Shown here one piece after another: positions 60,249 to 60,523 of a stretch of 64,000 nt of DNA. The notes beneath the pieces are model-generated. The model had not been told where the DNA came from. It saw nothing but the letters and a program-made list of their open reading frames with translations, and searched no databases. This DNA is from Pseudomonas phage HHBS18_1, in sequence record PQ287651.1; one strand, 5' to 3'. Numbering within the stretch: the stretch's first letter is position 1; each line of letters begins with the position of its first letter. A program made the position numbers and the translations under genes.

Positions 60249-60523
60249 GGGAGAGATATGTCTGAAAGCACTCACCGGCCCACGCCTAGCGCCTATGAAG
60301 AGGAATCCACAAGGGCAACCTGAACTCGAATGCTGTTAAAGGGTGGAGACGACGCGAAAGCGGAATGACAGCAATCCGATGCAGCCTACATGCTGCCCCT
60401 CACCGAACTCATCTGCATGAGTAAGAGGAATTGGATAGAGCCAAGGCACGTCTTAGGCAGATTAAATTCTGTATGGCGAGCCTTGGGACGACTCTATCCT
60501 TCCCTAGCCGAATCTATCTGCAT
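60249..60523 (+). ncRNA. conserved structured non-coding element, copy 2 (see 3646-3891)
   Basis: shares blocks and covarying helices with copy 1; transcribed from the 60208 promoter as the 5' leader of a small Zn-ribbon ORF. Confidence 0.5.

Follow-up and report, generated by a model that had tools for sequence, protein, structure and literature searches.

The window analysed here is a stretch of 64,000 nucleotides (nt) from Pseudomonas phage HHBS18_1 (sequence record PQ287651.1), and the feature under study is a structured RNA that it encodes twice. A sequence-only reading had placed a second copy of a structured element at 60249-60523. When 60201-60600 was compared with the window by blastn, the sole other copy lay at 3628-3891 (73.7% identity over 281 nt, E = 2.7e-26), and a covariance model of the family, R1, matched both: copy 1 (type A) at 3621-3897 (+) with 222 bits, and copy 2 (type B, on the tRNA side of the genome) over its full length at 60243-60529 (+) with 227 bits. 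The second copy was therefore borne out, while the coordinates first given for it, which do lie within the element, fell 6 nt short at either end. The two copies are paralogues of one family of RNAs of 260-360 nt.

Copy 2 directly follows an early, sigma-70-type promoter at 60208..60235 (+), with a -35 box TTGACA, a 16-nt spacer and a TG-extended -10 box TATTAT. A consensus scan scored it at 11 of 12 positions, in agreement with the promoter that the sequence-only reading had picked out, and the homologous site in phage PAK_P4 carries the annotation 'putative promoter_11'. Because the -10 box ends at 60235, transcription would start at about 60242-60243, the first base of the region that forms helix P1. 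Back to back with this promoter stands a divergent one at 60158..60185 (-), also with 11 of 12 consensus positions in the scan, which serves the leftward genes phrog_5019, DUF7375 and a ClpP-like gene. At copy 1 the promoter scan found an early promoter at 3588..3615 (+), TTGACA-N16-TAAAGT with a TG extension. In both copies the expected start falls on the first conserved base, and each promoter is paired with a divergent one on the other strand, such that a genome carries two paralogous copies, one at each of two divergent-promoter junctions. The predicted start coincides with P1 in Pseudomonas phages, and the divergent family members examined all have a sigma-70-like promoter plus an extra 5′ hairpin. 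From these positions, the RNA would constitute the first 260-360 nt of transcripts made from strong host-type early promoters.

Downstream of copy 2, a poorly conserved C/A-rich spacer at 60530..60597 (+), with a Shine-Dalgarno sequence AAGGAA at 60587-60592, leads to a 62-amino-acid open reading frame (ORF) at 60598..60786 (+) that encodes a Cys4 (CxxC...CxxC) mini-protein. This gene, also recognized in the sequence-only reading, matched phrog_10364 (E = 7e-46), and tblastn found it in 183 phage records. As regards position, the earlier claim that the element is the leader of this gene is correct: the element heads the Cys4 transcript, in a leader of ~355 nt.

The surrounding region provides a background against which conservation of the element can be judged. 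The phage is a Pseudomonas aeruginosa myophage of the PAK_P1/JG004 type (Pakpunavirus): positions 40-60 kb of the window match more than 110 genomes of this type at 90-96% identity, and the 20 kb next to copy 2 is mostly 90-95% identical between phages. Copy 2 itself is at least 99% identical in 122 phage records. It is thus more conserved than its surroundings, which argues against chance.

The R1 model was built from 18 sequences and yields 40 full-length or near-full-length matches of 124-274 bits, which represent 37 distinct sequences from Pakpunavirus, Otagovirus-like and uncultured phage contigs. Phages of P. syringae, P. fluorescens and P. putida, along with one Pectobacterium phage, have weaker homologues (69-78% identity), around which the gene order of the window locus is kept. 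To extend the family by pattern, two conserved blocks were used, recovering 44 loci from IMG/VR, most of them genuine. An independent pattern drawn from the P9 hairpin added three members that vary at positions the first pattern had fixed, carrying CCUCACCG and UAUGAAGAGU; the seeming invariance of ACUCACCG and UAUGAAGAGG is therefore due in part to how the family was collected. Among 120 pattern matches listed for bacterial and archaeal genomes one was genuine, on a 27.8-kb contig in a Thaumarchaeota metagenome-assembled genome that is probably a misbinned phage contig, and among 120 listed for metagenomes 16 were genuine, one of them a contig-end fragment; the matches listed in both sets were mostly chance. 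As far as sampled, the family is confined to phages among the matches listed.

Helices were read from alignments and then scored by pair counting on a model-based alignment of the 37 distinct sequences. The two positions of a proposed pair could pair in 86.0% of cells, versus 69.4% in shuffles and 36-42% when partners were slid by one to three columns. Changes on both sides were found in 46 of the 65 pairs, and none of 500 shuffles reached the observed values. The first MAFFT alignment gave the same covariation picture. Six helices (P1, P2, P3, P5, P9a and P9c) are 95-98% paired, with most or all positions of each covarying, while P4, P6, P8, the m1 stems and m2 are less supported (59-83% paired), in part because their columns align poorly.

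The 5′ two-thirds of the RNA consists of the P1 domain and a core built from P2 to P6, with near-invariant unpaired strands, and the 3′ third is made up of four hairpins in a row, P8, m1, P9 and m2. In copy 2, P1 (60245..60285 (+), GCGUGGG/CCCACGC) is 95.5% paired, with all 7 of its pairs changing on both sides, and encloses the conserved strands GAGAGAUAUGUC and CACUCACCGGC. P2 (60291..60316 (+), GCCU/GGGC, with a conserved terminal U-G pair) is 96.6% paired, 3 of its 4 pairs covarying, and its loop holds the near-invariant AUGAAGAGGAA as well as the 5′ strand of P3. P3 (60306..60347 (+), UCCAC/GUGGA) is a pseudoknot helix that crosses P2; it is 96.6% paired, both sides vary in all 5 pairs, and since the structure given to the model did not include P3, the model had no part in this support. 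P4 (60319..60342 (+), CCUG/AAGG) is the weakest helix of the core, 79.7% paired with 2 of 4 pairs covarying, and its loop contains the 5′ strand of a second pseudoknot helix, P5 (60331..60373 (+), UGCUGU/ACAGCA), which is 98.2% paired with 6 of 6 pairs covarying. P5 crosses both P3 and P4; together with the crossing of P2 by P3, this makes the core a nested double pseudoknot. P5 also encloses the small hairpin P6 at 60353-60362 (+), CGC-GAAA-GCG.

In the 3′ array, P8 is a hairpin at 60381..60396 (+), GCAGC-CUACAU-GCUGC, 82.6% paired in the family alignment, its coordinates in copy 2 having been read from the sequence. The long hairpin P9 (60433..60499 (+)) is composed of P9a (GGAUAGAG/CUCUAUCC, 98.3% paired), P9b (CAAGG/CCUUG, 83.2%) and P9c (GCAGA/UCUGU, 97.3%), with covariation in all three. 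The long unpaired strands that are nearly invariant comprise GAGAGAnAUGUC, CACUCACCG, UAUGAAGAGG and GGAAUGA, together with the conserved internal-loop strands of P9, GUCUUAGGC, GUAUGGC and CCUUGGGAC. Depending on the member, a GAAA loop is present in P6, in P7 or in the P1 insert, and the pair GUCUUAGG/UAUGG within P9 may resemble an 11-nt GAAA-tetraloop receptor. Copy 1 has the same set of helices on the plus strand, with P1 at 3623-3662, P3 at 3683-3723, P5 at 3707-3749 and P9 at 3806-3870. A ribozyme like that of hepatitis delta virus (HDV) was considered for the double pseudoknot and rejected: the strand order here is P3-[P2′]-P4-P5-P4′-P3′-P6 hairpin-P5′, compared with P1-P2-P3 hairpin-P1′-P4 hairpin-P2′ there, and no HDV-type model of Rfam matched. 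A protein-coding gene was also rejected, given that internal ORFs of 37-59 amino acids are not kept, non-triplet insertions and deletions are numerous and compensatory changes come in pairs.

The RNA was not matched by any catalogued family that was searched. With Rfam 15 at gathering thresholds, the window yielded only tRNAs and, away from both copies, one group I intron (RF00028, 71.9 bits, full-length), which lies at 11645-11913 (+) in the rightward early/middle region. Permissive scans of both copies gave noise (group-II-D1D4-3 at 14 bits, PART1_3 at 19 bits), eight other family loci gave tRNAs only, and the riboswitch, ribozyme, GOLLD, ROOL, HEARO, 6S, RNase P, tmRNA and group I/II intron models of Rfam 15 left the copies unmatched. 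GOLLD and ROOL are similar in being encoded by phages or prophages, in their complex folds, in often lying beside tRNA clusters and in having no known function, but they are 580-800 nt long and their Rfam models match no family member; neither is known as a promoter-proximal leader or for twin loops that change in concert. Literature searches found no account of this RNA. The GenBank record of PAK_P4 draws its revised annotation from RNA-seq and shows nothing in the 350 nt from promoter_11 to gp171. PAK_P3 ncRNA1 and ncRNA2 and PAK_P4 sRNA1, known from the literature, were considered and rejected as being this RNA, as they are separate loci within the tRNA cluster, and R1 had no match in PAK_P3 between 40 and 88 kb. 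The window gap between the tRNA-Met and tRNA-Cys genes (62704-62939 (+)) corresponds in position to the RNA-seq-annotated 'PAK_P4sRNA1' (PAK_P4 91948-92050), a separate small RNA. Taken together, the element is a genuine structured RNA that is not catalogued, and the family appears to be undescribed.

The most distinctive part of this RNA consists of m1 and m2, two small hairpins between which P9 lies. They correspond to an internally repeated motif that had been noticed in the sequence-only reading and was found again, at 60403-60419 and 60508-60524 in copy 2 and at about 3786 and about 3884 in copy 1. In copy 2, m1 (60398..60428 (+)) has an outer stem CCUC/GAGG, an inner stem ACUCA/UGAGU and the loop UCUGCA and includes the first repeat; m2 (60508..60526 (+)) is a weak hairpin, UCUA-UCUGCA-UGGG, containing the second. 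The repeat core ATCTGCATG is exact in both, and copy 1 has the cores ATCTGCATA at 3786 and 3884. A typical m1 in the family has a stem of the CUCA/UGAGA type, a loop of 6-7 nt and a short outer stem, and m2 repeats the loop and 3′ stem of m1, except that its 5′ stem is weaker and its loop is shorter by one base. Conservation ends at m2 in every alignment.

Every member has m1 just 5′ of P9 and m2 just 3′ of it, at a spacing of 94-116 nt, with an exact shared core of 7-13 nt. The longest run shared by m1 and m2 averages 9.8 nt within an RNA (range 7-13), versus 3.8 nt between lineages (95th percentile 6). There are 20 distinct m2 variants, and the lineage-specific cores include ATCTGCAT, which is common to both Pakpunavirus copies, as well as ACTTACGAG, AGCTTCATGAG, AGCGTCATGAG, ATTTTGGATAG, AACAGAAT, AAGACGAT and GTTTAGGAG. 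Among close relatives, single-base changes are mirrored in both sites (loci L020 versus L276, L010 versus L233, L025 versus L033), and the hairpin stems compensate, for example from CUCA/UGAG to UCC/GGA in L354. The twin loops thus stay matched within each RNA and vary between lineages, which supports the earlier suggestion of a binding site; the repeated motif is very probably a recognition site. Separately, in L039 (~8090-8130) and L005, a PAK_P1-like copy 1, the m1 loop carries an AT-rich palindromic insertion of 16-24 nt that adds another ATCTGCAT core (CTCATCTGCATATACATATATGTATATCTGCATGAG), such that the motif occurs three times in that RNA.

Because the element sits at divergent-promoter junctions and contains direct repeats, spaced by about 100 bp and each including a short inverted repeat, it might also be read as a DNA-level element, either a replication origin with iterons or a set of repressor operators. 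We regard this as very improbable. Dozens of compensatory pair changes, including G-U intermediates, together with the pseudoknots indicate selection on the single-stranded fold. In addition, the repeats keep an asymmetric centre and not palindromic arms, the opposite of sites for dimeric DNA-binding proteins, and a palindromic DNA operator was rejected on the same grounds. A mimic of an anticodon arm, or a T-box-like specifier, was likewise rejected when reasoned from the folds: the loops lack U33 and R37 and specify no consistent codon.

The reading that we tentatively prefer is that a trans-acting partner recognizes the two hairpins as twin sites and that the core is the scaffold that holds them. 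Loops that diversify quickly yet remain matched within one RNA point to a private specificity determinant and not to a metabolite aptamer, and a comparable pattern is known from the boxB-N pairs of lambdoid phages, from coat-protein operators and from antisense loops. The conserved core would serve for folding and recognition, and m1 and m2, flanking P9, would be the working surface, showing the same lineage-specific loop of 6-7 nt twice. The partner would be bivalent or dimeric and could be a phage or host protein, or an RNA. Through it, the RNA would control the early transcript that it heads; in many family members m2 abuts or overlaps the ribosome-binding site of the following gene, as it does the Shine-Dalgarno sequence in L010, L019, L042, L044, L039 and L018, which would link the RNA to translation there. 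Alternatively, after processing at its 3′ side, it may act as a stable RNA.

To search for a nucleic-acid partner, the complementarity of each RNA's own loop core was compared with that of foreign loop cores. The own core was no more complementary than foreign cores to any region of the same RNA, to the preceding 120 nt or the following 1 kb, or to the mRNA transcribed divergently, which argues that the partner is not encoded nearby. A slight upstream excess (13.3 versus 12.4) dissolved on inspection. The reverse complement ATGCAGAT had no match across the 64-kb window, and nothing in the window's tRNA region stood out in complementarity to the loop core. Within P9c of copy 2, GCAGAU is complementary to the loop, but this candidate was rejected as it fails in other lineages. 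Extra same-strand copies of the core (window positions 45118 and 54845, and loci L031, L024 and L019) were attributed to chance, being within coding regions with no common flanks. Thirteen nt at 45115-45127 (+) match the m2 region of copy 2 exactly (TCTATCTGCATGG), where ~0.002 such matches are expected by chance in the window. They sit in the 3′ end of a minus-strand, DprA/SLOG-type-like ORF with no shared context, and the match is a probable coincidence. The C4 RNA of phages P1 and P7 is similar in that direct repeats in one phage leader (a1b1/a2b2) flank a structured RNA and co-vary between heteroimmune phages. There, however, the repeats complement loops of the intervening RNA, whereas here no part of the RNA complements the repeats, and cis antisense of the C4 type was rejected because own and foreign complementarity were indistinguishable in the RNA and its flanks.

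Several observations weigh against recognition by a trans-acting partner, or against particular forms of it. No partner was found in the RNA, the flanking 1 kb, the divergent mRNA or the tRNA region, and the Cys4 protein shows no obvious co-variation with the loops. One Otagovirus-like genome has unlike cores in its two copies (L024 versus L030), so a protein model would need two partners there. A direct translational operator cannot be general, since m2 is ~45-95 nt from the next start codon in copy 2 and in type-B RNAs generally. A simple display role does not account for the large, highly conserved pseudoknot core.

The genes that follow the RNA bear on a second reading, in which it acts in cis as a riboswitch: by binding a small molecule or ion that reports host state, the pseudoknot core would gate the early operon. 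The neighbourhood of type-B copies is fixed, with phrog_5019 and DUF7375 to the left and the RNA, the Cys4 gene, phrog_3900 and the tRNA array to the right (15 tRNA genes at 61258-63941 of the window). The Cys4 ORF follows a type-B RNA in 15 loci from several genera, at ~45-95 nt in 13 of them and at ~510 nt in two near-identical loci. Type-A copies in other phages precede a DUF4326 gene whose ribosome-binding site abuts m2. In the window this position is held instead by a 65-amino-acid ORF at 3960-4157 (+) resembling the T7 gp5.9 RecBCD inhibitor (Pfam PF25708, E = 1.2e-13), which is served by its own promoter at 3900..3928 (+), identified by promoter scan and beginning 3 nt past the end of copy 1.

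In favour of a riboswitch, the element is a 5′ leader close to its promoter, its fold is complex, some of its unpaired nucleotides hardly vary, and m2 lies near the ribosome-binding site in several members. The C-rich, G-poor spacer after copy 2 might moreover be read as a Rho entry site. We nevertheless consider a riboswitch unlikely. No intrinsic terminator was found after either copy, and no alternative pairing sequesters the Shine-Dalgarno sequence: that of the Cys4 gene and its AUG are ~60-70 nt past the element and are predicted to be unpaired in the centroid fold. The downstream genes (Cys4 protein, phrog_3900, DUF4326, RecBCD inhibitor, tRNAs and other ORFs) share no theme, and in the window a separate promoter follows copy 1. 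Rapid, concerted change of two loops is not expected of an aptamer or an expression platform, and P1 closes the first 45 nt only and not the whole domain. An RNA thermometer (ROSE, fourU) was rejected because the Shine-Dalgarno sequence at 60587-60592 lies in the unstructured C/A-rich spacer ~60 nt past the element. The riboswitch- or thermosensor-like leader proposed in the sequence-only reading is therefore not supported, in view of the missing terminators, the unpaired ribosome-binding site and the unrelated genes after the paralogue.

PAK_P3 (Nankokuvirus) provides a further comparison. Its gp160 (L049 44418-44594) is a homologue of the Cys4 gene (MRCKGCNRII...CSLCQ) that starts ~100 nt past divergent promoters with no structured RNA between. 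The function of the RNA is therefore not tied to the Cys4 gene, and the RNA has been gained or lost independently of it. The element is an autonomous RNA module rather than only a Cys4 leader. A different feature of the Cys4 leader was observed in Otagovirus-type loci (L001-L003, L020, L030 and L032), where a strong Shine-Dalgarno sequence AAGGAGAUUGU lies ~70-95 nt past the RNA and is followed by an AUG and then a stop after 1-4 codons (AUGACAAAUUAA and AUGGAAUAA are examples). The stretch lies shortly before the Cys4 start or overlaps it and may be a start-stop mini-ORF.

Indifference to the downstream gene is also a property of RNAs that modify RNA polymerase in cis, by processive antitermination or anti-Rho activity, either on their own like put or, like nut, with a phage protein bound to the hairpins. 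Each genome has the RNA twice, in both cases directly after the first early promoter that drives a rightward unit of several genes; one of these units runs into the tRNA array. Hairpins with phage-specific loops recall boxB. The putL and putR RNAs of HK022 are likewise phage RNAs present twice per genome, just past early promoters, whatever gene follows. The lambda nut sites (boxA and boxB, bound by N protein) are similar in that short hairpins stand in the nascent leaders of both early operons, with loops that a given phage shares between its operons but that vary from one related phage to another; here too, a hairpin loop specific to the phage recurs at the start of the early operons. The differences are considerable, however. 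The put RNA is ~70 nt long with two simple stem-loops and no pseudoknots, whereas this RNA, at 290 nt with two pseudoknots, is four times its size. Unlike in nut, the two hairpins are part of a pseudoknotted scaffold of 290 nt, and in one genome the loops of the two copies differ. No conserved sequence like boxA was noticed beside m1 or m2, and no N-like protein was identified, although no systematic search for one was made. Finally, no convincing plus-strand terminators that would have to be overridden were found in 3.9-20 kb or 60.5-61.4 kb, and strong promoters recur every 1-3 kb in the downstream early region, so read-through is not obviously needed. Antitermination therefore seems to us quite unlikely.

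A gene on the opposite side of copy 1 raises the question of RNA processing. At 2122..3255 (-), divergent from copy 1, lies a gene for a nick-sealing, Naegleria-type RNA ligase with OB and nucleotidyltransferase domains (Pfam PF21189 and PF09414); its OB domain (PHA02142) is N-terminal, and the closest solved structure is that of the RNA ligase from Naegleria gruberi (PDB 5cot, E = 1.6e-62). The gene annotated 'RNA ligase / tail fibre attachment' in the 40-60 kb region is a different one. By tblastn, the ligase gene accompanies 10 further family loci at 46-93% protein identity, ~0.4-0.8 kb from the RNA in nine of them and 4.3 kb from it in L018.

The corresponding reading is that m1 and m2 are equivalent sites of cleavage and ligation, used in an enzyme-assisted or self-catalysed reaction with the pseudoknot core as catalyst or as platform for an enzyme. 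Cuts in both loops would free a P9 unit of ~100 nt, possibly circular, and rejoin the flanks. The products would regain an intact hairpin only if m1 and m2 were interchangeable, so the need for matched sites would keep the two identical. Compatible with this are the identical loop cores and 3′ stems, the constant spacing, the consistent one-nucleotide excess of the m1 loop over that of m2, the divergent ligase gene, and a size, a double pseudoknot and near-invariant junction nucleotides typical of ribozyme-grade folds. In the stem-loops of HAC1/XBP1 and the bulge-helix-bulge of tRNA introns, the segment to be excised lies between two equivalent hairpins or loops, and an RNA ligase carries out the last step. 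Such a mechanism would explain interchangeable sites beside an RNA ligase gene, but those systems are eukaryotic or archaeal and have a fixed loop consensus, as opposed to the lineage-specific loops here. Moreover, the m2 hairpin is in many cases very weak, and no ribozyme family in Rfam matched. The adjacency of the ligase may merely mirror conserved gene order among related phages, and PAK_P3 has an annotated RNA ligase gene yet no such RNA in the part of its genome that was searched. On balance, we consider processing unlikely.

A broader possibility, which we hold to be doubtful but worth stating, is a retargetable scaffold in which a ribozyme-grade core carries two interchangeable hairpins and the shared loop is a short programmable address. 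The loops would be either a twin guide or seed for a nucleic-acid target, or matched excision-ligation sites that use the adjacent RNA ligase and release or circularise P9. If true, either version would be a mechanism not yet described for phage RNAs. Whatever probability is not taken up by these readings and by the twin recognition sites that we favour belongs to functions not yet thought of.

PAK_P1-type Pakpunaviruses are among the phages most often proposed against Pseudomonas aeruginosa infections, and two of their early promoters first produce an RNA that has not been annotated. The RNA is a new, well-supported class of large structured RNA, ~300 nt with a double pseudoknot, and joins the few ornate phage RNAs whose role is unknown. 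Its concerted twin loops offer an unusually direct experimental handle on the partner. Should the loops turn out to be matched processing sites or programmable addresses, phage RNA biology would gain a new principle and possibly a compact, engineerable module.

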